Positions 3,512-54,790 of a DNA stretch of 64,000 nucleotides are shown here, in pieces; position 1 is the stretch's first letter, and the number at the start of each line of letters is the position of its first letter. The stretch spans positions 49,476,001 to 49,540,000 of the forward strand of contig NC_043007.1 of the NCBI RefSeq assembly GCF_006345805.1. The letters run 5' to 3'. The notes beneath the pieces are model-generated. The model saw only the letters and a list, made by a program, of their open reading frames with translations, made no database searches and was not told the origin of the DNA. Made by a program: the position numbers and the translations under genes. Origin of the DNA: Octopus sinensis. Its lineage: Eukaryota.

Positions 3512-4065
3512 GCCCTGATGCAGTACCAGGCAGTGGCTCTCATGGCTTCTGATCTTAACTGATTGGAAGTGTTATCATGTACATTGTTTTGTCTTGGTAT
3601 AAAAGATGGGCTACAGCAAATATTCTGCTCAATACCACAGATTTGCTTGTCAGTTGTTTGACTTTAACCAGTTGAGCATGTCCCTTAGTGGCTGACGATA
3701 TGTGCATCTCTGATCACGAGCAGAAGTAGTGGGGGAGCATCATAGCCATGTGTTGAGAGGGATTCTTTGGAGTTTGAATAATTCACCTCTGGAAACATGG
3801 GTGGTTCTTTCAACATCCTTAAACAACCCTTATTCAGGGACCTTTTGAGCAGGATGGGCAACTCAACCTGAAGAAAATTCTAACTGGGCCCCAACTGCAA
3901 GGTCATGTGCTGTTTATCTTGATATGAGATCACCATGTCGCGCACATATGGTTGTGATGCATGTGCCTGGTGTACCCTTATCAGACGGGTAGTCATGATG
4001 GGTATATTGGGCTTCGTATATTTCACCCCAGTGTCACTTTGATGGCATGAACTGCTCTCTCACTC
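3512..4065 (+). mobile_element. ~550-bp non-coding retroposon inserted in (TAA)n
   Basis: Flanked by (TAA)n. Further copies at 3201-3410, 4114-5223 and 34156-34516, with variable 5' starts and a shared 3' end cactc-(aat)n where the end is retained. Confidence 0.75.
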
Positions 4066-4114: not shown

Positions 4115-5223
4115 GTGGGTTGTTCGTTCAACAGCCTTAAACAATCCTTATTCAGGGACCTATTGAGCCGGATGCACTGCTCTTTCACTCAATGATAATA
4201 ATAATAATGATAATAATGATAATAATAATAATAATAATAATGATCTTAACTAACATGGCTTCTGATCTTAACTAACATGGCTTCTGATCTTAACTCATGG
4301 CTTCTGATCTTAACTCATGGCTTCTGATCTTAACTCATGGCTTCTGATCTTAACTGATTGGAAGTGTTATCATGTACATCCGGCTTCTGACCTTAACTCA
4401 TGGCTTCTGATCTTAACTCATGGCTTCTGATCTTAACTGATTATTATGTACATTGTTTTGTCTTGGTATAAAAGATGGGCTACAGCAAATATTCTGCTCA
4501 ATACCACAGACTTGCTGCGTATATTTTACCCCAGTGTCACTTTGATGGCATGCACTGCTCTTTCACTCAATGATAATAATAATAATGATAATAATGATAA
4601 TAATAATAATAATAATAATAATGATCTTAACTAACATGGCTTCTGATCTTAACTAACATGGCTTCTGATCTTAACTAACATGGCTTCTGATCTTAACTCA
4701 TGGCTTCTGATCTTAACTGATTGGAAGTGTGATCATGTACATTGTTTTGTCTTGGTATAAAAGATGGGCTACAGCAAATATTCTGCTCAATACCACAGAT
4801 TTGCTTGTCAGTTGTTTGACCTTAACCAGTTGACCATGTCCCTTAGTGGCTGACGATATGTGCATCTCTGATCACGAGCAGAAGTAGTGGGGGAGCATCA
4901 TAGCCATGTGTTGAGAGGGATTCTTTGGGGTTTGAATAATTCACCTCTGGAAACATGGGTGGTTCTTTCAACATCCTTAAACAACCCTTATTCAGGGACC
5001 TTTTGAGCGGGATGGGCTACTCAACCTGAAGAAAATTCTAACTGGGCCCCACCTGCAAGGTCATGTGCTGTTTATCTTGATATGAGATCACCATGTCGCG
5101 CACATATGGTTGTGATGCATGTGCCTGGTGTACCTTTATCAGACGGGTAGTCATGATGGGTATATTGGGCTTCGTATATTTTACCCCAGTGTCACTTTGA
5201 TGGCATGCACTGCTCTCTCACTC
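4114..5223 (+). repeat. Rearranged tandem copies of the TAA-targeted element with 20-22-nt reiterations
   Basis: catggcttctgatcttaact(aa) repeated at ~4242-4440 and ~4622-4720, interspersed with (TAA)n. Confidence 0.8.
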
Positions 5224-22384: not shown

Positions 22385-25300
22385 AAGTGGAGCTGTGAAA
22401 CCGTCGAGTCATCGGCGACTAAACCGACAACCCCACTAAGCTTGCTGGTGAGAAGGGTGGATTTTCGACACCCTGCGGGACTAAAAACAGAACCCGGCAA
22501 AGGGCAGAGGAACTTAAAAGAGTCAATGGCCATTCCGAAAACGGGTAGACAGAACTCGTGGCCCTTGGTTGGCAGTCTGTCTAGGAGAAGGAATACTCTG
22601 ATTTCAAAACTGGTGTGGAAAAGACTTCTTTGACACAGTGATCAAGCCCGACTCCTACGCGAAACCAATAGAAGTTTGGAAAAAGGCGAGTATCTGGCGC
22701 CTCTGAATAACGAATGCTCCGGGTAAGCTGTCCTCGTTAGCCTTGGGTAGCGGGCAGCTTAGGAGAAGGAACACTCCAAGCCCCAAATCAGGGGAGCAAA
22801 GATCCTACCACCTTGGTGGATTACCTCGATAGGGATGGTGTCTTGATAAAAATACCGGTTGATCGTAACCTAAAAATACAACTCATTCGTGAGTGAAAAT
22901 GCCAAGAAAAATAAATGACGATAAGGGTGTAAACGGGACTAGAACCAATAGTGAAGGTGCTACTCTCGGCAGGTACCCAGGTGGGCCCGGTCGTAATCCA
23001 ACAACTGCTAGCCATTCTACAAGACACAGTACTTGTACTGGTCAAATTATGCAATGTGCTTGAAAACGCAAGTCGTCTGTTGATATGAACAAAAAGCCGA
23101 TCCAGTGCCATGAACACGCTTTGCTAGACAAGAACAATGGCAAATGTAATGTTGCTGGAAAAAGATCATTAGAACTTTGGAACCAACTGGGTATGTTCCT
23201 GATGACTGAAAATGGATTCATGAATCAAATAAGAATATTTCGGAATAGAGGTTTTCTTAATGAGGTCCAGATTCAGACAATCAGGTAAAGCCTCTAGAGT
23301 GGTGAGAATCTCGAGGAGAATAAAGTAGTTGAAGACCAGTGAAGACCAGGCAAGGTGAAGTTTTAGTGGATGAGAGGTCAGCCTATCAATATAATGTAGA
23401 AAAGCCAGAAATAAGAGAGGATATGACTGAGGAACAGAGAAATTTCAGGAAAAGACTTTAAGATTTAAGAATTACAAGAACAGAGACCAAGCCAGTGAAT
23501 CTAAGAAGCTTCGACCATAACAATGTTAAACGCGCGACCCAAAAAGTTGATGAGATTCCGAAACATATTCTGACAAAACATCTAACAGAAACAAGGGACT
23601 TGATCAGATCTGCTTCAATTTTAGTAGGTTAGCTGGTTGGAAAGAAAATAGACAGAAAGAAGGAGCCATGTTGGAAGCGGAGAATTGAAAGCGATGGGGT
23701 ACCAATTAAAAAAGAAAGAGTTCAAAACTGTCAACGAAACCATAAAACAACGCTTGCGGGCTAAAACATTAAAGGTGCAGCGCTACACTGACCACATATC
23801 GCGGTTCCAGCAAAACCAGTTATTCTCAAACAACTAGAGGGCTTAGGGGGAAATACAGAAGGTAAATCAACTCCTGGAGCAGAAGAAAATCGCCAATTCT
23901 GGAATAACATCTGGGGGCAAAACGTTTCGCACAACCACAGAGCTGTGTGTACTCATTCTGTGAGATCCGAATTCCATCACCCGGAGGCTCCACAACTGGA
24001 CCATGTGCGCATAACAGCGGAAGATGTCCTTGCACAGATATCAAAACTGCCAAACTGAAAAGCAGCAAGACCAAACGGAATTCAAGGCTACTGGCTCAAA
24101 TGGTTTAGGTCAACACACAAGACAATTGCGTTGCAATTAGATAATTGCCTACTGAGCGGTACAGTTCCTGAGTGGACAGTTGAGGGAAGAACAACATTGT
24201 TAGTGAAAGATCGGTCAAAAGGCAATGAAGTTGGCAATTACCGACCCATTGCTTGTCTTGACCTCCTATGGAAAGTATTGACAGGTACCCTCGCAGGGGA
24301 AATATATACGTACCTTGCGGAAAACAATCTTCTGCCAGTAGAACAAAAAGGGGTGCCGAAAAGGATCCAGAAGCACCAAGGATCACCTTGTGATAGACAA
24401 GGTTATAATGAAGAACTGTAAACGGTACCAAAAAAACTTATGCATGGCCTGGATAGACTTCGAAAAGGCTTACAACATGTTGACGCCTTCGTAGATTTTG
24501 GAAACACTCGACATGTGTGGAGTAACTGAGAACATATGTGCACTGATTAAGAACAGAATACCTAGTTGGAAAACGTATTTTTCCTGTAACAACCAGCACT
24601 AAGCCGAGGTAACAATTAAAAGAGGTATCTTCCAAGGAGACTCTTGTTCACCTGTTTTATTTGTTATAGCCTTGATCACACTTTCTGTAAACCTACGAAA
24701 ACTCAACGTGCACTATGATCTGAAAAAGAACGGACCTCGTCCCAACCATGAATGATTTAAAATTGTTCGCAAGAACAGAACCTGAAATGGAGAGGCTGGT
24801 CGAGACTGTGCAAATGTGCAGCAAGGATATAGGGATGGAATTCGGTATCTCAAAGAGTGCAGTGCTTACTCTGAAGTGGGGGAAAAGAGTAAATTGTAGG
24901 GGTATGGGATTGCTAAACGGAGAGAGAATGGAAGATTTGGATGATGATGGGTACAAGTACCTTGGGATCCTGGAGCTGGACCAAATCTTGCACAGAGAAA
25001 TGAAATACAAGGTCACCACTGCATATTTGAAGCGCCTCAAACTTCTCTTAAAATCGAAGCTCAACTCAAGAAGCCTTGTGACTGCCATCAACATATGGGC
25101 TGTTGCTGTATTCCGGTATAGTGCACCCATCCTGAGATGGGTGCATCACATTTTCTAACGGCGGCAAGCAAGGATTCACTTTGCCGCTTGATGTACTATC
25201 CCAGACGATTCTTCTCGTTGACACAGATCTTGCATTCTATGAGATCTTGCTAAATATTCTGCTATGTTTCTTCTTTCACTGTTGATGCACTCCCTGTACG

Positions 25301-25980
25301 CTAATCAACCCACGCCCACCCTTACCTCTCTTCATGTAGAGCCTGTGTATATTTGCCTTAGGGTGGAGGGCACCATGCATTGTCATTGTCTTTAGGGTAG
25401 TGCAATCGAGTTGGTCAATCTCCGCTTGTGTCCATCTCAGGATGGGTGCACTATCAGAAGACCTGATACAGCAAAGAAGACCTGCTAGTGCAGGAGTTAA
25501 CGAAAATGGACTTGAGAGTGCTCAATAATTTCGAACAGGAACAGCCGACCAGAGAGAAGAAATCTTACTCCGTATGGAATTACATGGTCAGTTCCACCGT
25601 GAAACTAACAAATTAAAAAACCAGCAAGCATCATGGAGGTGGCTGAACAAGGGTGATTTAAAAAAGAATACTGAAAGCCTAATCATCGCTGCCCAGGACC
25701 AGGTATTGAATACCAACACCGTGAAAAAGAATATATACCACACAAGTGCATTGGACCTCTGCAGAATGTATGGGAAGAGGGTCGAAATTGTGACTAATAT
25801 TGTTAGTGCTTGTGAAAGTCTTGCGCAGAAAGAGTACACGCGTAGACAAGACAAAGTAGCCCAAAACCTCCACTGGCTACTATGCCGTAAATATGTATAT
25901 GAGGTTACGGGTGCTTGGTACCAAGATACGCCCGAAAAGGTAATGGACGAAAAGCGGAAGACAAGAATCATCTATGACAA
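22385..25980 (+). mobile_element. R4/Dong-like non-LTR retrotransposon with 5' UTR, degraded, RLE domain missing
   Basis: N-terminal KRSLELWNQLGMF..NQIRIFRNRGFL; [34 protein letters not shown]; LHGQF; zinc knuckle CRMYGKRVE..IVSAC. Internal inversion at 25242-25454. Confidence 0.85.
22543..22777 (+). promoter_or_regulatory. Two copies of a structured 5'-UTR RNA motif
   Basis: Copy 1 (22543-22599) stem tagacaga/tctgtcta; copy 2 (22721-22777) stem taagctgtcc/gggcagctta. Both are followed by the hairpin ggag-aaggaa(t/c)a-ctc(t/c). Confidence 0.65.
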
Positions 25981-25984
25981 GAAT

Positions 25985-26990
25985 CATCTATGTAGGGTCT
26001 TACTCCAAAGTGTTTCTGTCTCCAGTTTGAGTAGGTTTGTACAGTATTAGATTAATTTGTGGAGAAATAGATGGCATGGTAGAAGGCCGTAAGAACTTCT
26101 TTATTACCTTCCTAGACCATTTTTCATTCTTTTTCTTTTGGTTATTTAATTATGACATTGATGGCCATCTGTTGGAATATTCCGGCTACTTCCGACTCCT
26201 GTGTTTCGGGAAGATTTGAACCACTCGCTGATTTTCCGTATAGAACCTGGTTGATCATTCGAGTACGTAGTCCTTGGTGTTCCGATTGACGACCGTTCCG
26301 GTTTGTATTTTGCTTTATTATCACTGAGGCATAATGAGCTTGGACAATAACATTAGGGGACGGATATGTCTGTTTAGAATTAATCTTTTGAGACAACACC
26401 GCCTCGGAGTTCTCTGCATGTAAACATTGCTCGTAACGTAGCTTCTTAAGGCTAACAAATCTGTATTCGTTTATAGTTTTTTTTTTGTTGATAGACTTAT
26501 CTCCGGGCAAATTTTTTGTGGTGTTTTTAAAATTATGAATTTTTCACTCTGTGTTAGTTCAAAAGATAACAGATAGTTTTTTGTTTGTTTGTTTTCGCTT
26601 CATTTCTAACACGTGTTTTCTTACGCGTGTATGTATGTCTTGTAAATTTCTCGTAGTTGAGTAAACATTGGGATGTATGTGTAGTCCTATAGGTATTCAG
26701 ATGTATATTTGATTATGTAGACATTTGAATGTATGTGTAATTTCAATTTATGTACTTACTGTCTTGTTCCATTTATATTTTATAATTTGTAAACTTTCCG
26801 GTGTTGCTTTCGCGTGTGTGTTTCGTACATGTTTCACTGAGACATCGTGAATAGGAGAAACTGTGCTTTGTATAGCAGTAAAATTTCGTTTTTGTGATTA
26901 TCTTCGTTAATTGACCGCTTCCTTCAAGTCTTCCACAGGTTTCTTATCCCATTCTACCGATGTTATTATATTAGTTATTCAGCGCGGAGA
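25985..26990 (-). mobile_element. 5' part of a second R4/Dong-like element
   Basis: Frameshifted KRKRMK..EGNKEVLTAFYHAIYF..VQTYSNWRQKHFGVRPYID, typical of an R4/Dong N-terminus. Begins at a (TAA)n tract. Confidence 0.6.
26824..26984 (-). ncRNA. Hammerhead-like motif with ~140-nt stem II (G8U)
   Basis: cg-CTGAATA-act..acatcg..gaatggga..gaaac.ctgtg / cacag.tttc.tcctattc.cgatgt..agt-GAAA-catg-TA-cg. Confidence 0.55.
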
Positions 26991-27029
26991 TTATTATTAT
27001 TACTATTATTATTATTATTATTATTATTA

Positions 27030-27401
27030 CTTTTTTTTTCTTCTTTAAAATTTGCTTCCATTTCTTGCCGAGTGTCTTCCCGACTCCTAGGGCAAAGAAA
27101 CTCATAGTATACATTGGTAGGCCATTAAACCAAACTCAGTAGTTCGTTCATTTTTTTTTTTTTTAATTAAAATACATGAGCAGCAACAGTTCTCACATCG
27201 ACAATGCTCTTCTCAATACGTGTGATGTACCAGTTAAGACAATCTTTTGCACTTCTTGCAGGGATGGTAAGCCAGGAATCATTCTCATATAATTTTCGGT
27301 TCCCTTCTTGATCATTCCTAGTGCTCCTACGATCACTGGTATTGTAACCGGCTTGAGATGCCACATTTTCTCAATTTCAATGAGTAGGTCTTTATATTTT
27401 C
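27030..27401 (-). mobile_element. 3' end (RLE C-terminus + UTR) of an R4/Dong-like element
   Basis: KYKDLLIEIEKMWHLKPVTIPVIVGALGMIKKG...LRRALSM*, ending in A-run then (TAA)n. Confidence 0.85.
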
Positions 27402-27735
27402 AGTAGGTCTTTATATTTTCAGTAGGTCTTTATATTTTCAGTAGGTCTTTATATTTTCAAGTAGGTCTTTATATTTTCAGTAGGTCTTTATATTTTCAGT
27501 AGGTCTTTATATTTTCAGTAGGTCTTTATATTTTCAGTAGGTCTTTATATTTTCAAGTAGGTCTTTATATTTTCAGTAGGTCTTTATATTTTCAGTAGGT
27601 CTTTATATTTTCAGTAGGTCTTTATATTTTCAGTAGGTCTTTATATTTTCAAGTAGGTCTTTATATTTTCAGTAGGTCTTTATATTTTCAGTAGGTCTTT
27701 ATATTTTCAGTAGGTCTTTATATTTTCAGTAGGTC

Positions 27736-27737
<2 letters not shown>
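27383..27737. repeat. 19-bp minisatellite, 18 copies plus a partial copy, with a 96-bp higher-order period
   Basis: Unit agtaggtctttatattttc; an extra A at 27459, 27555 and 27651. Confidence 0.95.
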
Positions 27738-27816
<79 letters not shown>

Positions 27817-28030
27817 GGATGGTGGGCTGGCAGAATCGTTAGCACACTGGACGAAATGTTTGGCAGTATTTCGCCTGTCACTTCGTTCTGAGTTTAAATT
27901 CCGTCGAAGTCGACTTTGCATTTAATTTATTTCAGGGTCGATAAATAAAGTATCAATTGACTATTGGGGTCGATGTAATTGACTTATCTCCTCCCTCCAA
28001 AAGCTATACTTTTAGCAAAATTTGAAACAA
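27817..28030 (+). mobile_element. tRNA-derived SINE (family B)
   Basis: ggctggcagaatcgttagc head and gtcgactttgc..ggtcgataaa core. Copies on the minus strand at 33873-34055 and 37125-37348. Confidence 0.8.
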
Positions 28031-28055
28031 TTAATATAATAATAATAATTATTAT

Positions 28056-29915
28056 TGTCTTGCTTCTCAAGACGTTCGATCTTGTTTGTTCTAGTAGATT
28101 ATGTTAGAGTGGACATCATCCTACTGTCAGAGATCTCACAGGGTCTTTTTCCGCACATTATAAGCTTTAATACTTGATTATGGATATTCAACTTTCTAGT
28201 ACCAATGTCACAATCCTAGCTGTCCTCAACAGAGCATGTTTTAGATTTGCTTTGCTTTCTCGTCAATTACGATTTGTTTGACATATTTCTCGAACTTGGT
28301 TGTTAGTGCTCCGAGTGCCCCTACAGCTACTAGAATGACACTCCCCACAGTCCAAATTCTTGAAATTTCGTCTTTTAGTAGTCTGTACTTTTCAATTTTT
28401 CTAGTTCTTTGTCACTTATGCGTGCATCCCCAAGTATTGCAATATCTATAATCTTGTATTTTCCTCCTTTATCTACCACAACAATATCTGGTCTCTGTGC
28501 ATCAATTAGGGAATTACATGAATTGCAAAATCTCACAGTATCTTATATTCCTTATTCTCAGTGACTCCATTTCCGTGCTCTGTTCAGGCCCACATAGCCT
28601 CCAGTGGACGAACATAATCACATATCCTACAAAGGGGCGATTGGCTACTCTTATCTATTTGGAACTTAGTGTAATTAGTTCTCAGATCTTATTCTTGAGT
28701 GGTGCATGTCAATGCATCAGTGCATCCTTTCAGATCACATTTTCTTAGCCATTTCCAATTGTTGATCTTGTCGTTTCCTTCAATTTCGCGGAGGTATTGC
28801 CCATGCAGAGATTTCATTTTGTAATTGTTTACTCTTTCTTCTTCATCTCTTTATCTCGTTTCTTAAATATTTGTGGGTGCATCACATTTTCTAACAGTGG
28901 CAAGCAAGGATTCACTTTGCCGCTTGATGTACTATCCTAGACGATTCTTCTCGTTGACACAGATCTTGCATTCTATGAGACCTCTTCCTCCCCTCTACCT
29001 AGGCTCGTACAATCTGTCAATATCACTTTTGGGGTGCAGTTCCTTGTTAATTGTCATAACTTTTCTGGTTTTCCTGTCCATTTCCTTAAGTTCGTTCTTT
29101 GCCCACCCAACAACGCCTACACCATATCGCATTAAGTAAACAGCCTGTGTGTTCATTGTCCTGATCTTATATTTTCCATCGAACCTAATTTCCATAATTA
29201 ATATGTTTTTTCTCAGATATTCTCGCCTAAATATTTCCTTAATTTCACTTGATTTTGTCGTATTCCAAAATCTTCATTATACATCCTTTATTTTCTCCCC
29301 GTTGGGTAGCTCTACGCCATCAGACGATACTACTTTGCCTCTTTGTATTACAAGCATACCACACTTTTTATCCCAAATTCCATTCCGATATTCTTACTGA
29401 ATATCTGCGCTGTTTAAAACTAGGTCATTTATTTCACTTTCGGTCTTCCCAAAGATCTTTAAGTCACCCATATATAACAGATGATTTAATTTTCTTCCAC
29501 TTTTCAAAGTGTACTCTGATGTCACTTTCCGTAGTATCTGTGTGAGGAGTATTATACATATCACAAGCTGCAATGGTGACAGGCTATCTCCTTGAAATAT
29601 GCCTCTTTTGATGGTAACCCTCGCAAAACATTTTTAACGTGAAGATAACTCTGTATTCCAGTTTTTCATTGATTATCTCCTGACAAAATTTGATGTTATC
29701 AGACACATTTATCAGCTCCAGTACTTTCTAAAATCCAGGAATGGGGGACCATGTCATACGCTTTCTTATAATCGATTCACGCCATCCCCTGATTAATTAG
29801 TCTGTTCTTACAGTCGTTCAGTACCATTCTGTCTATCAGAAATTAGTCTTTTGTCACTCGGCTTTTGCTTCTGCATCCTTTCTTTTCCATTGGAGTTTGT
29901 CATTGATTTACCGAA
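28056..29915 (-). mobile_element. R4/Dong-like element, degraded RT to RLE
   Basis: RGIFQGDSLSP, YGVGVVGWAKNELKEMDRKTRK, LHPKSDIDRLY, LHGQY, RPDIVVVD. Confidence 0.85.
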
Positions 29916-29935
29916 AGTAAGACACATAATTAGAT

Positions 29936-30397
29936 TAGAAAATTACTATTTTAAAATCTCACAACGTGAGATATTCAGCAACAGTGCTTTTTAGTAAAGA
30001 TTGTTTGCCAACATAACATGGCAGTCTTGGTTTAGGACTAATGTTGCTGTAATTTAGCCCCAGGAATATCTCACGTTGTTAGATTTAAAAATAGTAATTT
30101 TCTAATTTATAAATCAGTGACTGGTTGTCACTTTGAAAACTTTTTATTTCAAACGGGAATTTGGCACCGCCACCTCTAGCCGAACAATTATTCTGTGCTG
30201 ATGAAGGAACATAACCCTGAAATCGCGATACACAGATATTGTTTTGAACTGAATGGGGGTGCTAAATTCCCTTGTTCGAAAATAGAAAGACACAGATCGT
30301 GTCGTATAGCCAGCTGGAGACGATGTCTCCTGTGGTTAAATTACAGCAACATTAGTCATAAACCAGGACTAACATGTTATGTTGGCAAACAATTTTT
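29936..30397 (+). mobile_element. Non-coding hammerhead-bearing element (retrozyme-like) with 12-bp TSD
   Basis: acataattagat at 29924-29935 and 30398-30409; internal HHR; nested inverted segments. Confidence 0.7.
30192..30236 (+). ncRNA. Type-I hammerhead ribozyme, intact core
   Basis: tctgtg-CTGATGA-agg aacataac cct-GAAA-tcgcga-TA-cacaga; predicted cleavage after 30230. Confidence 0.9.
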
Positions 30398-30420
30398 ACA
30401 TAATTAGATATTATTATTAT

Positions 30421-32869
30421 ATGAAAAATCACAGCTTATTTTTCTGGGTATGATGGAAAGTGTCAGCTGTCCACAGCTAGCAGATTAAGTCGACACTGGT
30501 TTACTGGTTATGCTTCAAGAACCCCACAAAGAATTCTTGCAGTTTCATGCAACTTTGATTTTTGTAGGTGTTCTATCTGCACACTTGTACCAATCATTTT
30601 TAGCCCTGTTGGTAGTTGGATACCGATATTTCCAAGTGCATCACTTACTATTGGTATCACGTCTACTCTCTTTGACCACAATCTTTGTATTTCCCACTTC
30701 AAATTGTCATAGTTGTTTATTCTTCCTTCTTTCACATTGATCATGTTGTCACAGGGGTATGCTATGTCGATGATCATACATGTTCTTTCTTTTTTATATA
30801 TCACAACAATATCCTGTTTCCGATGCCTGAGCGGGTGATCGCACTGGATCATTGCATCCCACAGGATTTTGCAGTTCCTATTTACGGTAATTTCTTCTTG
30901 AGTGTGCTCGAACAACATCTTTCCTCTTTGTTGGCCATAATTTCCACAGATCTCTCAATGGATCATTCTTGCTATATTGTCATGGCATCTTTTGTATTCG
31001 AGTTGTGCCAGTTTCGGGCATTCACTAATGATGTACCATACCGTTTCACCCCTCTCACCATACAATCTGTATTTATTGCTATCGGTGGTGTTGTCTATTA
31101 TGGTTGGTCCTTAATGCTTGTAGTTGGTGCTTAATGCTTGTAGTTGGTGCTTAATGCTTGTTCCTGAGCTGAGTATATGAATGCTTCTGTCTCAATCTTC
31201 AGGTCACTCCTCCTCATCTATAGCCACTGTATTGATGTTAACATCTCTTGCAAACTGACTGTATATTATTTCCTTCCATGCCTTTTCTTTTCTTTTTGCT
31301 CAATTCTTGCTTAAATTTTTCTTTAGTTACACAATTTTCAGTTTTGATGACGCCGGCCTTCTTCGTGTGTTTCAAAAGTGGCTCCACGGTATTTTATATA
31401 TACCACCCTAAGCTGCTTTCCTCTGCTTCGATACATTCATAGCAACTGATCAAACCTCTCCCACTGTTTCTTCTGGACGAGTATACCCTATCCGTGTCCC
31501 TCTTAGGGAAGAAGGCGCCGTGTAGTCAACATTTTCTGGCCTTGGTATCCATTATTTTCACTTCTCTCTTTTACCCTTTTATAATTCCCGCTTCATACCG
31601 AAGTGATGCAATCGCCCACGTATTAACTGCTTGGATGTTATTCCTTCCAATCAATTTTGAGCGCAACACCAACTTCAATCTTCGGAAATACTCCATCCTC
31701 ACTTGCTCTTTCATTTTCTTTTCCATTATCTCGTTGAACACCCCAAGGTATTTGTATCCCTCCCTTTCAGGTTGTTTAATCATGTCTCTATTCTTTAATT
31801 CTATCCCTTCAAGGGACTGTACTTCGCCTCTTTTTAGGTGAATTATTCCGCACTTCTTGAGTCCAAATTCCATTCTAATATCAATACTAAAACAGTGGAC
31901 AGTGTTCACCAAAGAACTCACTTTTGTCTTATCTTTGCCATACAGTTTCAAATCATCCATGAAGGGGAGGTGGCTGATTGTTTGGGATTTTCCCTTTCTT
32001 TGGTACCCCAGGTTCATTTTCCTAAGTACCAAAGTCAGAGTTTGATGCAGATAATAAAAAGCAACGTAGATAGGTTATCACACTGGAAAATCCATCTTCT
32101 GATAACCAGGCTTTTTTTCCGTCGAGCTTTTTCCGTAAGGTGTCAGTTCAGTTTTCTATCCCACCATACTTCTCTTCAGGAAACACGTTGTATTCCTCTC
32201 AGTTCCAAACAGGTCTATGCACTCGATGATCCACGAATGTGGAATCATATCATAAGCTTTGCAATAGTCAATCCAAGCCATTCCCAAGTGTGTTCTCCTT
32301 CGTTTACAATCTTGTATTACCGTTTTGTCTATCAATACTTGATCTTTGGTACCTCTGCATGTCCATCTACAGCCTGTTTGTTCCGTCGGTAATATATCTT
32401 TCTTATTAAGAAATTTATACAGTTCTTCTGCAACTCCTCCTGACAGTACTTAATGGTACGCATAAAATTGGTTTATAATTGTCAGTACCATTTCCCTTTC
32501 TTCTTCTCCATTGATCAATGCATTAAATTGCTCTGCGATCAATTAATGGCAACTCCTGAACTTCTTCATCCAAGATCACTGTACACTATCAGGTCCTGCT
32601 GCTTTCAAAATGTTTATCTTTTTATACACCATACTTCTTCCTAACTTTCTTCGAATTTCCATTCATACTTAAGTTCCCCATTTCTTTTTCCCAACAAGTA
32701 TTGACATTACACTGCTCAAAGAGTTTAAATCTTCCGAAATTCTCCTTTTCCACCATGGTTGTTTATTTCCTTTCCTATTCGTCGCTGTTCTGTTCTGAGT
32801 AGTTCTTAATCCTGTTGTTTTACTAGGAGCCTCGATAAGATTATTTGTTTGTGTGATGTTTTTGTTTCA

Positions 32870-32870
<1 letters not shown>
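30421..32870 (-). mobile_element. R4/Dong-like element, degraded RT + RLE
   Basis: SHLPFMDDLKLYGK, GYKYLGV, KILWDAMIQCDH..RKQDIVVI..CMIIDIAYPCD. Flanked by (TTA)n on both sides. Confidence 0.9.
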
Positions 32871-32921
<51 letters not shown>

Positions 32922-32922
<1 letters not shown>

Positions 32923-33015
32923 GTCCTGGGATCGATTTTCTTGATTAAAGGCGGTGCTCCAGCATGGCCACAGTCAAATGACTGAAACAAGTAAAAGAGT
33001 AAAAGAGTAAAAGAG
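32922..33015 (+). mobile_element. SINE family A 3' fragment
   Basis: aaaggcggtgctccagcatggccacagtcaaatgactgaaacaagtaaaagag. Confidence 0.85.
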
Positions 33016-50872: not shown

Positions 50873-51972
50873 CAAAATTAGAGAATGGAGAAACATGCTT
50901 AAATCAATAAAACATCAACTATCCGATGATACCCAATCAATAATTTAATACACCATTACATATGAGTAAAGGCATTCAAAATATACAGTAATAGTAAAAG
51001 TAAAAAGACAAAGAGATATAAGTAAAAAGTTTCAAATATAGTTATTTCGATCTTGAAAGGATGGACTTGGTGCAAACATAACTGTATCTATTATTATTAT
51101 TATTATTATTTATTATTATTATTATTATTATTATATTATTATTATTATTATTATTATTAATATTAATAGTAATTTTTATTAAGTTTTATAGCTTTAGAAT
51201 TTTATGAACTGAACCATGGTTTTAATTATTATTTTTCATCTCCCTATGTGTTAGTTTTTTTAAAAAAACTATTAGCCAAATATGTATAATATCGGTGCTT
51301 ATTAATATTAATATATACACTGATATATATTTTGTTTTATTTTGTTCTGTTTACCTTCCATTATTGTACCAATGAGTATTATATTATATAAGTGTAGCAT
51401 TATGATGTATAAATTTTTATAGTTTACATTTTTATATTTTTATATTTATATGTATATGGTTATATAATATTTTTCACAATTATAACAAATTTAATTTAAT
51501 TCTCTGAAGAGGCCGTGGGGCATCCTTGTTAATGCCTCATTTATACCTGCCTTTATGGCTTATAGGTTAAATGAGGTATGACTGCCCTCACTGCCGAAAC
51601 AGCTGTCAGTTTTGATTTAATTACATATTATATTTGAAATTTTTTACTTATATCTCTTTGTCTTTTTACTTTTACTATTACTGTATATTTTGAATGCCTT
51701 TACTCATATGTAATGGTGTATTAAAGTATTGATTGGGTATCATCGGATAGTTGATGTTTTATTGATTTAAGCATGTTTCTCCATTCTCTAATTTTGTAGT
51801 ATTAATTTACGGTAATATTATTACCTTTACCCATATAATACAATAGATGAACTGATTGTTTGACAATTTTTAACATCTATGTATTAGTCTTGTTGGGTAC
51901 CTATCTGGCAGTATATTGGTTATATATTATCCCATGGTGGGTTGAATTCTCAACCCCTATCTCATTTTATAA

Positions 51973-52919: not shown

Positions 52920-54790
52920 TTGAGACCTATAATAGCAGGTCCCACATACGAAACCCACCGCCTAAGTAACTTTTTAGATACCTTCTTAAAACCATTCTTC
53001 AAACATGTCAAAAGCTATATAAGGGACGACCTGGATATGCTCAATCACCTTCCTAAAATAATAAACAAAAACACCCTACTAGTATCCTTCGAAGTAGTCA
53101 ACCTCTATTCCAATATCCCCACAACCTAGGAATAGATGCAATTCAATTCTGGCTAGAGAATTACGCCAACGAACTCCCATGGTTGTGAGAGAAGGGCTAA
53201 AATTCATCCTGGAAAATAACTACTTCGTCTTCAAAGACAACTTCTTCCGACAAAAATCGGGGACTGCGATGGGTACGCGAATGGCTCCCTCCTTTGCTAA
53301 CCTAGTCATGGGATATCTAGAAATCAGTCTATATCTTAAGGTTCTAGAAAGATACGGCAACCCTTTCTCCCTCTACATAGAAAACAACTGGAAGATGACT
53401 GTTTCATTCTTTGGCATGAAAATATAGAGAAACTTAAAGAATTCCAAGCATTTTTAAATGGATTTGACGTAAACATCCAATTCTCGGTGGAATATAGCCA
53501 GCAACAACTCCCCTTCCTCGACATCCTCATTAAGAAATCTAATAACGTAATAGAAACAGATATATACTATAAGCCTACGGATTCCAAGCAATATCTTCCA
53601 TTCAATTCATGCCACCGCAGACACACCAGAATGAATATCCCCTTCAACCTAGCAAAAAGGATATGTACTATAGTTTCTAATGCAAATACCAGAGACACAC
53701 GACTACAAGAACTAAAAGATACCCTCATCACCAGGAACTACCCACCTTCACTTATAGACATATGCATTCAACGTGCCCTTCAACTCAACATCCAGAGACA
53801 CAAACATCCCAAATTAAAGAAAAATTTACAACCAAAAGCCTTACCATATATCTCCATGCACAACCCTCTCAACAACGAGGCCTTAGACACAATCCTCCAA
53901 AACATACCCCTGCTAAAAGAGGACCACAGAATGAACTTAATCCTCCAAACACACACCATCATAAAAAGCAAGAGACAGCCCAAATCTATGAAAAGTCTCC
54001 TAACACAAGCCCGAATACGCTCAACAACACAGAAGCCCTCAGTAAAAAAATGTGGAAGACCCAATTGTGGGGTATGCGATTATCTAATTGAGGGATCAGA
54101 GTTCTCCTTCAAACAGGGACAACGTTTCACAGTGAAAAGCAACTTCACATGTGCGTCAGAGAACCTGATATACACACTAACCTGCTCTGGGTGTCAAGGG
54201 CAATACATAGGCCAAACAAAAAATAGTCTACGTAAAAGAATGGCCCTGCACAGATCCCAGATAAAAATATTTGTATTTTGAAATTAGCTATTTCATCTTT
54301 AAATATGAAAAATAAATTTATTAGGTTTTTATTATATACAATTATTTATAGAGATTATTTTAGATCTTGATTATAATATTTATATATATATTTTCATTGA
54401 TAATTTATATATATTAGTCATTTTAAATATTTATGTAATTAGATATAGACTAATATTGATATTAGATTATGGGTTTCCTACCTTATAAATTAAAATTAAT
54501 ATTTAACATTATAGTCGATTTGGATATAATCATATTTGATAATAGAGTTTATTATAAGTAAAATTATTATATTATATATATTAATTATATCTTTAAAATA
54601 TTGATTTATTTTAGATATGTAAACCACCTGAAGAATGACTGTAACTCGAAAATTTTAAGAATTGAACAGCCGTGAAACGATCGTAGTGTTATATTAATTA
54701 TCTTTTTTAATATAATTTTGATATATATTTAAATAATATGAATTAATTAATCTTATGTATTGGCTTAAGTTTTTCATTGTATGCTTTGCC
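52920..54790 (+). mobile_element. Penelope-like element (RT + GIY-YIG), disrupted
   Basis: LRPIIAGP, VVNLYSNIP, QKSGTAMGTRMAPSFANL, LPFLDI, YYKPTDSKQYL, LIYTLTCSGCQGQYIGQT. Confidence 0.95.
54622..54690 (+). ncRNA. Type-I hammerhead downstream of the PLE ORF
   Basis: aaccac-CTGAAGA-atgactgt..acagccgt-GAAA-cgatcg-TA-gtgtt. Confidence 0.85.

Follow-up and report, generated by a model that had tools for sequence, protein, structure and literature searches.

The window analysed here is a 64,000-nt stretch of Octopus sinensis DNA. The locus of interest is a junction on its minus strand, where the 3' end of one Dong-like RLE element is followed by a (TAA)13 tract and the 5' region of a second such element (Table 1). 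The translation of the upstream ORF end is 58-74% identical to the last ~65 amino acids (aa) of 17 proteins of 989-1453 aa. The search with this C-terminal peptide found 133 proteins, at least 17 of which are 980 aa or longer. The (TAA)13 tract is likely both the tail of the upstream element and the target site of the downstream one, and TAA microsatellites are given as targets of Dong elements in PMC3812793. At its start, the upstream 3' fragment repeats a 19-bp stretch of its own ORF ~18 times in tandem (27383-27816), with (TAA)27 before the array; it looks as if priming had recurred at a truncated 5' junction. Within 10 kb (23700-33000) there are five or more Dong-like RLE fragments, several of them starting beside TAA tracts.

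Downstream of the tract, the initial annotation had recognised an AT-rich leader and an R4/Dong-type N-terminal reading frame, and both are borne out. A profile of 11 database RT-RLE N-termini matches 26315-25983 (iE 2e-12), ~650 nt downstream of the motif described below, and the N-termini of three of the 17 long proteins (P0069, P0075 and P0109) match 26366-25986 by tblastn. A protein search with the N-terminal 43 aa gave no candidate, and an index-free search gave three matches, one of them plausible (P0002). A Myb-like domain at the N-terminus is a lead only, from the likeness of the relative P0075 to the Rap1 Myb domain (Atlas 0.85). The window copy breaks off after ~aa 117 against an RLE body on the opposite strand; other copies run on into an NKLANVRR motif (loose end at 25987). 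At this opposite-strand junction of two Dong-like fragments (25960-25992), a short shared sequence and a 16-bp tandem duplication (TRF) were found. The plus-strand body ends there near aa 1103, its minus-strand partner is the N-terminus, and other copies continue normally on both sides.

Table 1. Features at and around the junction of the two Dong-like elements (positions in the window).
Feature	Position	Strand	Content or basis
C-terminal ORF end of upstream Dong-like RLE element (3' fragment)	27196-27405	minus	profile match 1.7e-32
Putative 3' UTR of upstream element	27030-27192	minus	place between ORF stop and TAA tract
(TAA)13 tract	27029-26991	minus	TRF
5' arm of imperfect inverted repeat	26934-26984	minus	holds CTGAATA and HDV-like P1 strand GCTGA (26983-26979)
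CTGAATA (hammerhead-like 5' core)	26982-26976	minus	
140-nt insert between the two core halves	26975-26836	minus	
3' arm of inverted repeat	26835-26865	minus	descriptor matches; multicopy in 4 runs
HDV-like L3	26851-26845	minus	descriptor
HDV-like P1' CTCAGT	26841-26836	minus	descriptor
Hammerhead-like 3' core	26835-26832 (GAAA), then CATG, then 26827-26826 (TA)	minus	
AT-rich leader (5' UTR) of Dong-like element	26337-26825	minus	multicopy in 4 runs
Frameshifted N-terminal coding region of Dong-like ORF	25983-26336	minus	profile positions 4-117
Dong-like RLE body, opposite strand	23700-25978	plus	aa ~346-1103; profile map

For comparison, 14 related loci (L001-L014) were obtained from scans, four from metagenomes, nine from prokaryote assemblies and one from viral contigs; further scans led by proteins gave no matches. 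The relatives of 1.1-1.45 kaa that match the termini in the window carry RVT_1 and zf-RVT domains, with CCHC and an RPD..D..K endonuclease motif in their consensus. They thus have the single-ORF layout of R4/Dong elements (RT, CCHC, C-terminal restriction-like endonuclease, no APE). In a PDB search with five sequences of relatives, the solved relatives were R2-type chains only. A TAA tract lies at the motif junction and upstream of L001, L003, L006, L007 and L014; L002 is without a tract. The downstream element is probably the 5' region of a decayed Dong/R4-like RLE LINE, a label taken from TAA targeting, domain layout and N-terminal motifs. Dong-R4 is named among the recently active LINEs of Octopus vulgaris in PMC13282606. 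The sequences at L005-L013 (prokaryote assemblies) and L014 (viral contig) are of animal RLE retrotransposon type, five loci being in one assembly, and are probably host contamination.

A hammerhead ribozyme had been annotated on the minus strand directly after the (TAA)n tract. The letters on which this was based are all present, namely CTGAATA, a 140-nt insert and GAAA-CATG-TA, with TCTCCGCG between the (TAA)13 tract and CTGAATA. GAAA after stem II and the UH triplet (GTA, 26828-26826) are those of a type-I hammerhead, and stem III is short and palindromic (ACATGT), as in hammerheads of the dimer type. The accompanying caveats, a mutated G8 and a short stem I, are likewise correct. Position 8 is U, so that CTGAATA gives C3.U8, where CUGANGA would give C3-G8, for which covariants such as U3-A8 can stand. 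Stem I, at 2 bp (CG/CG), falls short of 4-6 bp. A C3.U8 mismatch is damaging to the hammerhead core. Position 10.1-11.1 of the motif is A-U, versus the usual G-C. The U3-A8 covariant, the usual G10.1-C11.1 pair and one 2-bp helix I are reported in PMC4209133.

Stem II had been described as a paired stem of ~140 nt, of which the length and the presence of a hairpin stand and the complete pairing does not. The 140-nt insert has a predicted energy of -28.4 kcal/mol (z -2.41), and none of 200 shuffles was equally stable. With its flanks (191 nt) the z-score is just -1.34, and 23 of 200 shuffles were as stable. Pairing is restricted to a bulged outer helix of ~23 bp and a weak inner portion. At the stem base, 3 bp (A-U first) join the core, followed by a 9x3 internal loop and then the 23-bp helix.

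A relaxed type-I hammerhead descriptor, composed after the motif had been seen, matched four places within the window and none in 60 Markov-simulated windows, and none of 20000 dinucleotide shuffles of the first 301 nt matched it with the whole pattern. Since the descriptor is post hoc, these rarity figures are overstated. The hammerhead letter pattern is nevertheless beyond chance and not noise. Searches for further occurrences were negative. Self-BLAST gave no second copy of the segment within the window, and a search with the translated motif frame, to catch gene calls on other copies, gave nothing. DNA pattern scans gave 0 and 1 matches in viral contigs and 48 and 5 in prokaryote genomes, none of which extends into real homology. 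Rfam gave no hammerhead match at 26500-27300, even at E 10 (two snoRNA-type chance matches only), and nothing at gathering score in the whole window; at that score Rfam failed on the canonical hammerhead at 30198 as well, and its blank is therefore uninformative. Type-III hammerhead with TAA as stem III, twister, pistol and hairpin ribozymes were compared by eye with their consensus structures and did not fit. A literature report of a hammerhead at the 5' end of an R4/Dong element was not found; in PMC6765202, some LINEs and SINEs are said in passing to use hammerhead or HDV-like ribozymes.

The three other matches of the descriptor have intact cores. At 30193-30237 (plus strand), a canonical minimal type-I hammerhead with CTGATGA, a 14-nt stem II, a palindromic stem III and a 6-bp stem I is placed inside a decayed inverted repeat (29931-30109 with 30328-30399). 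At 51502-51609 and 54625-54688 (both plus strand), the stem II inserts are 85 nt (strongly paired) and 39 nt long, and the surrounding AT-rich sequence is typical of Penelope-like termini. A long stem II is thus not unique to the flagged site. Elsewhere in the window, near-identical segment copies ~1158 nt apart (3692-3930 and 4850-5090), each with CTGACGA and CTGAAGA, lie near TAA tracts and 20-22-nt tandem arrays.

On the hammerhead reading, the flagged motif would be a real type-I hammerhead with a 140-nt stem II, situated at the 5' end of a Dong subfamily, probably captured from a Penelope-like element and decayed in this copy (G8U); its palindromic stem III would let it work as a dimer. 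All parts are ordered and in register around a real hairpin, with 0/20000 shuffles as above, and the inserts at 54628 and 51504 provide precedent for long stems. A 2-bp helix I together with a palindromic helix III is described for D. virilis Penelope in PMC4209133. Against this stand C3.U8, which breaks a core pair, and A-U in place of the usual G-C at 10.1-11.1. A type-I cut would also strip the core from the element RNA in every round.

A further difficulty for a real hammerhead is that its core is complementary to its own stem II arm. Reverse-complemented, 26865-26835 agrees with 26984-26934 at 28 of its 31 positions, among them those of CTGA, which forms the outer end of this 31-nt inverted repeat. 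All five insertions (14, 1, 1, 3 and 1 nt) are in the 5' arm. In the secondary-structure model, CUGA is predicted to be paired with UCAG (26840-26837) at a probability of 0.92-0.99, and the cores of the three other hammerheads of the window pair with their stem II arms at 0.00. Forcing the hammerhead fold costs a predicted 8.6-8.7 kcal/mol here versus 3.0-4.7 kcal/mol in the other three. The core of the flagged motif is thus predicted not to be free to fold, and the claim that the first ~165 nt fold as a hammerhead is not confirmed by these models. The 5' arm has 20 gap letters in 51 nt, whereas listed pieces covering this region have 2-9 per ~240-315 nt, a contrast more in keeping with error-prone synthesis than with slow decay. 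The part shared by the family includes an inner hairpin (26943-26934 with 26865-26855).

For analysis of other copies, contigs of four of the 24 listed runs (X1, X7, X13 and X15) were aligned to 25900-27004 at 80% likeness. Between 774 and 1417 contigs aligned per run. Most were less than 95% alike, from which it follows that 25900-27004 is a multicopy family. The comparison of copies covers 40 of the 1197 differences, 24 of the 895 loose ends and 32 of the 4386 pieces, and coordinates of minus-strand records were taken as the record's own, as indicated by X15 record 16. The predicted cut site was bridged into the leader by 10 of the 32 listed pieces (4386 in all), with at least 31 letters on each side and an identity of ~82-86% (three from X1, five from X13, one each from X15 and X7). 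The GAAA half is therefore family sequence. The link from the cut site to the ORF is made by overlapping pieces and not by a single contig.

These bridging pieces also bear on the suggestion that the segment is an adjacent independent insertion, i.e. a Penelope-like or retrozyme fragment ending at the cut site, inserted between the TAA tract and the Dong leader. Three such motifs occur elsewhere in the window, and a palindromic stem III is typical of Penelope-like element hammerheads according to PMC4209133 and PMC6765202. The segment is without a second copy in the window. Its junction with the leader is a family trait, being read through at 26826 in 10 of the 32 listed pieces, which come from four runs. 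An independent insertion is largely refuted by this and extremely improbable.

The upstream half of the motif behaved differently. Summed depth (X1/X7/X13/X15) was 787/601/1272/5395 at 26899-26935, 144/104/114/452 at 26936-26972 and 24.7/11.7/2.7/1.15 at 26973-27004, the bin holding CTGAATA. The latter corresponds to 2.3, 1.4, 0.2 and 0.02% of the depth of the GAAAC bin, respectively. At the far end of the 25900-27004 stretch, no comparable fall was seen, and the sole skipped repeat reported was 26568-26596. In X1 and X7, the depth that remains over the 5' end is slightly above what a single locus should yield. None of the 10 bridging pieces among those listed passes 26945, and seven of them run on upstream for 33-170 unlike letters; the letters of other copies upstream of 26945 come from one loose end (two contigs). 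The family thus shares 25987 to ~26945, and the 45 nt beyond mirror 26865-26835. The depth drop could alternatively arise if copy-private indels stop local alignment while the family retains CTGAnGA.

For the question of whether the core is present in family copies, the outcome is divided. The 3' half is multicopy and fixed to the leader, as a real hammerhead would have it. The 5' half is at 0.02-2.3% of that depth, which leans against a hammerhead. CUGA is barely covered in other copies, though this arm should be conserved to pair with the conserved 3' arm. No relative that was examined carries a hammerhead, and a real one is considered unlikely.

The 5' junction is readable in six of the 14 related loci, which belong to three families (L001-L003, L006/L007 and L014). 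Descriptors for HDV-like ribozymes were composed in three versions: the first missed L003 and the window, the second found L003 and missed the window and L014, and the third was applied to six 5' ends (L001, L003, L006, L007, L014 and the window). In L001 and L003, an HDV-like fold begins at the first G after TAA, its core and P2 being matched by 2 and 1 of 2000 shuffles, respectively. L014 likewise has an HDV-like fold at the first G after TAA, with 5 of 2000 shuffles as good. The folds occupy 15-150 in L001, 2512-2660 in L003 and 2451-2530 in L014. L001-L003 share the G at which they begin and differ in their flanks. By descriptor, HDV-like folds at the first base after TAA thus appear to be present in two additional families of Dong-like elements (L001-L003 and L014). 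The hammerhead descriptor had no match in L003, L004, L006, L007 or L014. Rfam, run on L001-L004, missed the HDV-like folds of L001 and L003, and for this reason its blanks carry no weight. In Bombyx mori, Dong RNA self-cleaves after seven TAA repeats through an HDV-like ribozyme, as stated in PMC3774820. The annotated role of a hammerhead as the 5' ribozyme of the element is disfavoured by the depth of the CTGAATA bin, the predicted sequestration of the core and the HDV-like folds of the relatives.

For L006 and L007, neither the HDV nor the hammerhead descriptor fits. The 5' UTR of this family after (TAA)n (L007 550-640, L006 3521-3590) opens with a tRNA-like head with an A-box and a B-box-like element, recognised by eye; ARAGORN called no tRNA there. 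Pol III may drive this LINE, or the family may be a chimera of a SINE and a LINE. An 11-mer, GAAACATGTAC, common to the window and the L006/L007 5' UTR was considered as a conserved motif and rejected, as 38 of 300 shuffles score as well.

In the window, the third descriptor matches at G26983, with P1 GCTGAA/CTCAGT, P3 CTA/TGT, L3 TTCACGA and P1.1 with GA, including two mismatches. P1 lies within the expected 6-7 bp, its first pair being G.U and one top pair mismatched. P3 (26854-26852 with 26844-26842) has two of three pairs. TTCACGA with GA gives the U-A and C-G pairs of P1.1; the corresponding letters are TGCACGT/GC in L003 and TCCAAGC/GG in L014. In two tests, 16 of 20000 shuffles and 23 of 2000 shuffles attained the core; these scores include a P1 pairing that the inverted repeat alone would supply. 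The P1 match in the window may indeed be a product of the inverted repeat. The best candidate for J4/2 and P2' (26625-26614) lies 215 nt downstream and has one bulge, with 4 of 2000 shuffles as good. A stricter HDV descriptor (P4 up to 160 nt) had no match in the window, and a P1 starting at G26943 was rejected by eye, as L3 would not fit. The distance from G1 to TAA is 7 nt in the window versus 0 nt in L001, L003 and L014. The same bases serve both patterns: CUGA is also P1, and GA of GAAA is also the P1.1 partner. The bases of the window fit a damaged HDV-like core, probably the remains of the type of ribozyme carried by the relatives.

On this basis, 26990 might be the genuine 5' terminus of a subfamily, older or minor, whose now decayed HDV-like ribozyme had G26983 as its first position (P1 GCUGA/UCAGU starting with a G.U pair, ~120 nt of J1/2). 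Its cut would fall 7 nt after TAA, and the ribozyme would stay on the element RNA, as in Dong. One descriptor matches the window at G26983 and L003 and L014 at the first G. Dimensions are comparable, with 136 nt from junction to P3 in the window versus 115 nt in L003 and a leader of ~655 nt versus ~490 nt, and L003 has the same head-to-tail layout of 3' end, (TAA)n and 5' end. R2 J1/2 loops vary widely in length and sequence (PMC3774820). Set against this, the 23-bp helix would sequester P2, P3 and L3, P1 begins 7 nt off the junction, P2 and J4/2 are poor nearby, and 26946-26990 is shared by few other copies. A decayed HDV-like ribozyme starting at G26983 is possible but doubtful.

Both ribozyme patterns could also be chance matches, picked post hoc, in a plain hairpin of the family 5' UTR. 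Both descriptors were tuned after the sequence had been seen, the inverted repeat supplies CTGA and the P1 pairing for free, and the L006/L007 family fits neither descriptor, with Rfam blank. Against this, the features that remain are still seldom matched by shuffles, and use of a 5' ribozyme is known from the lineage (PMC3774820). The absence of any ribozyme is very improbable.

In the favoured explanation, to which a probability of about 0.5 is assigned, the hammerhead is a look-alike. Its CUGA half would come from an inverted repeat made in this copy, and its GAAA half would be HDV-like core sequence of the family. The family RNA would be cut from a read-through transcript by an HDV-like ribozyme with its core (P3-L3-P1'-GA) at 26854-26834, the true P1 strand being further upstream in full-length copies. 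Reverse transcription of this copy would have stopped near 26945, the foot of the family hairpin. The cDNA end would then have folded back on the hairpin and copied ~22 more bases, with slips and TAA-like additions, before the extended cDNA was joined to the TAA target. CTGA would need no separate origin, being what results when TCAG is copied in reverse. Hammerhead cleavage is not expected of this copy. The main weakness of the fold-back explanation is that it leaves three features to chance, namely the palindromic stem III with UH, the 3-bp base of stem II and the A at position 9.

As in Dong of Bombyx mori (R4 clade; PMC3774820), the 5' end of an RLE-type LINE lies directly after (TAA)n. 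The Dong ribozyme is paralleled by the HDV-like folds at the 5' junction of the relatives L001-L003 and L014 and by a partial match of P1, P3, L3 and P1.1 in the window. Unlike in Dong, G1 of the window lies 7 nt after TAA, P3 and P1 have one mismatch each, the assignment of P2 and J4/2 is uncertain, and the core is overlaid by a 31-nt inverted repeat; membership of the element in the R4 clade is putative. The hammerheads of Penelope-like elements (PMC4209133) share the order CUGA...GAAA-palindrome-UH of type I, and a 2-bp stem I has its counterpart in helix I of D. virilis Penelope, an exception. They differ from the window motif with its U at position 8, A-U at 10.1-11.1, 140-nt stem II and core predicted to be paired. 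A Penelope-like arrangement, i.e. a hammerhead in a pseudo-LTR beside an RT-GIY-YIG ORF, was not found: terminal repeat and Penelope ORF are absent, both flanks are RLE-LINE sequence, and the segment has no second copy in the window. Non-LTR retrozymes (PMC7229834; bioRxiv 10.64898/2026.07.22.740005) likewise present the type-I hammerhead pattern in animal genomes; the window has a single motif heading a coding LINE and, unlike them, no tandem units.

A more far-reaching possibility combines the two patterns. A Dong-like subfamily might carry a long-stem-II hammerhead from a Penelope-like element that overwrote the ancestral HDV-like core, with CUGA/UCAG and GA able to form either fold. This is decidedly unlikely. 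If true, an RLE-clade LINE would have exchanged its 5' ribozyme for one of another class, or acquired a second, in a lineage in which the member tested has an HDV-like ribozyme. The inheritance of a ribozyme that removes itself would then call for an explanation, the likely route being head-to-tail arrays such as those of Penelope-like elements and those seen here and in L003. Under the favoured fold-back explanation, the locus would be one more decayed Dong-like copy, of little consequence in itself, and would serve as a warning that motif scans can mistake an inverted repeat over an HDV-like core for a hammerhead.
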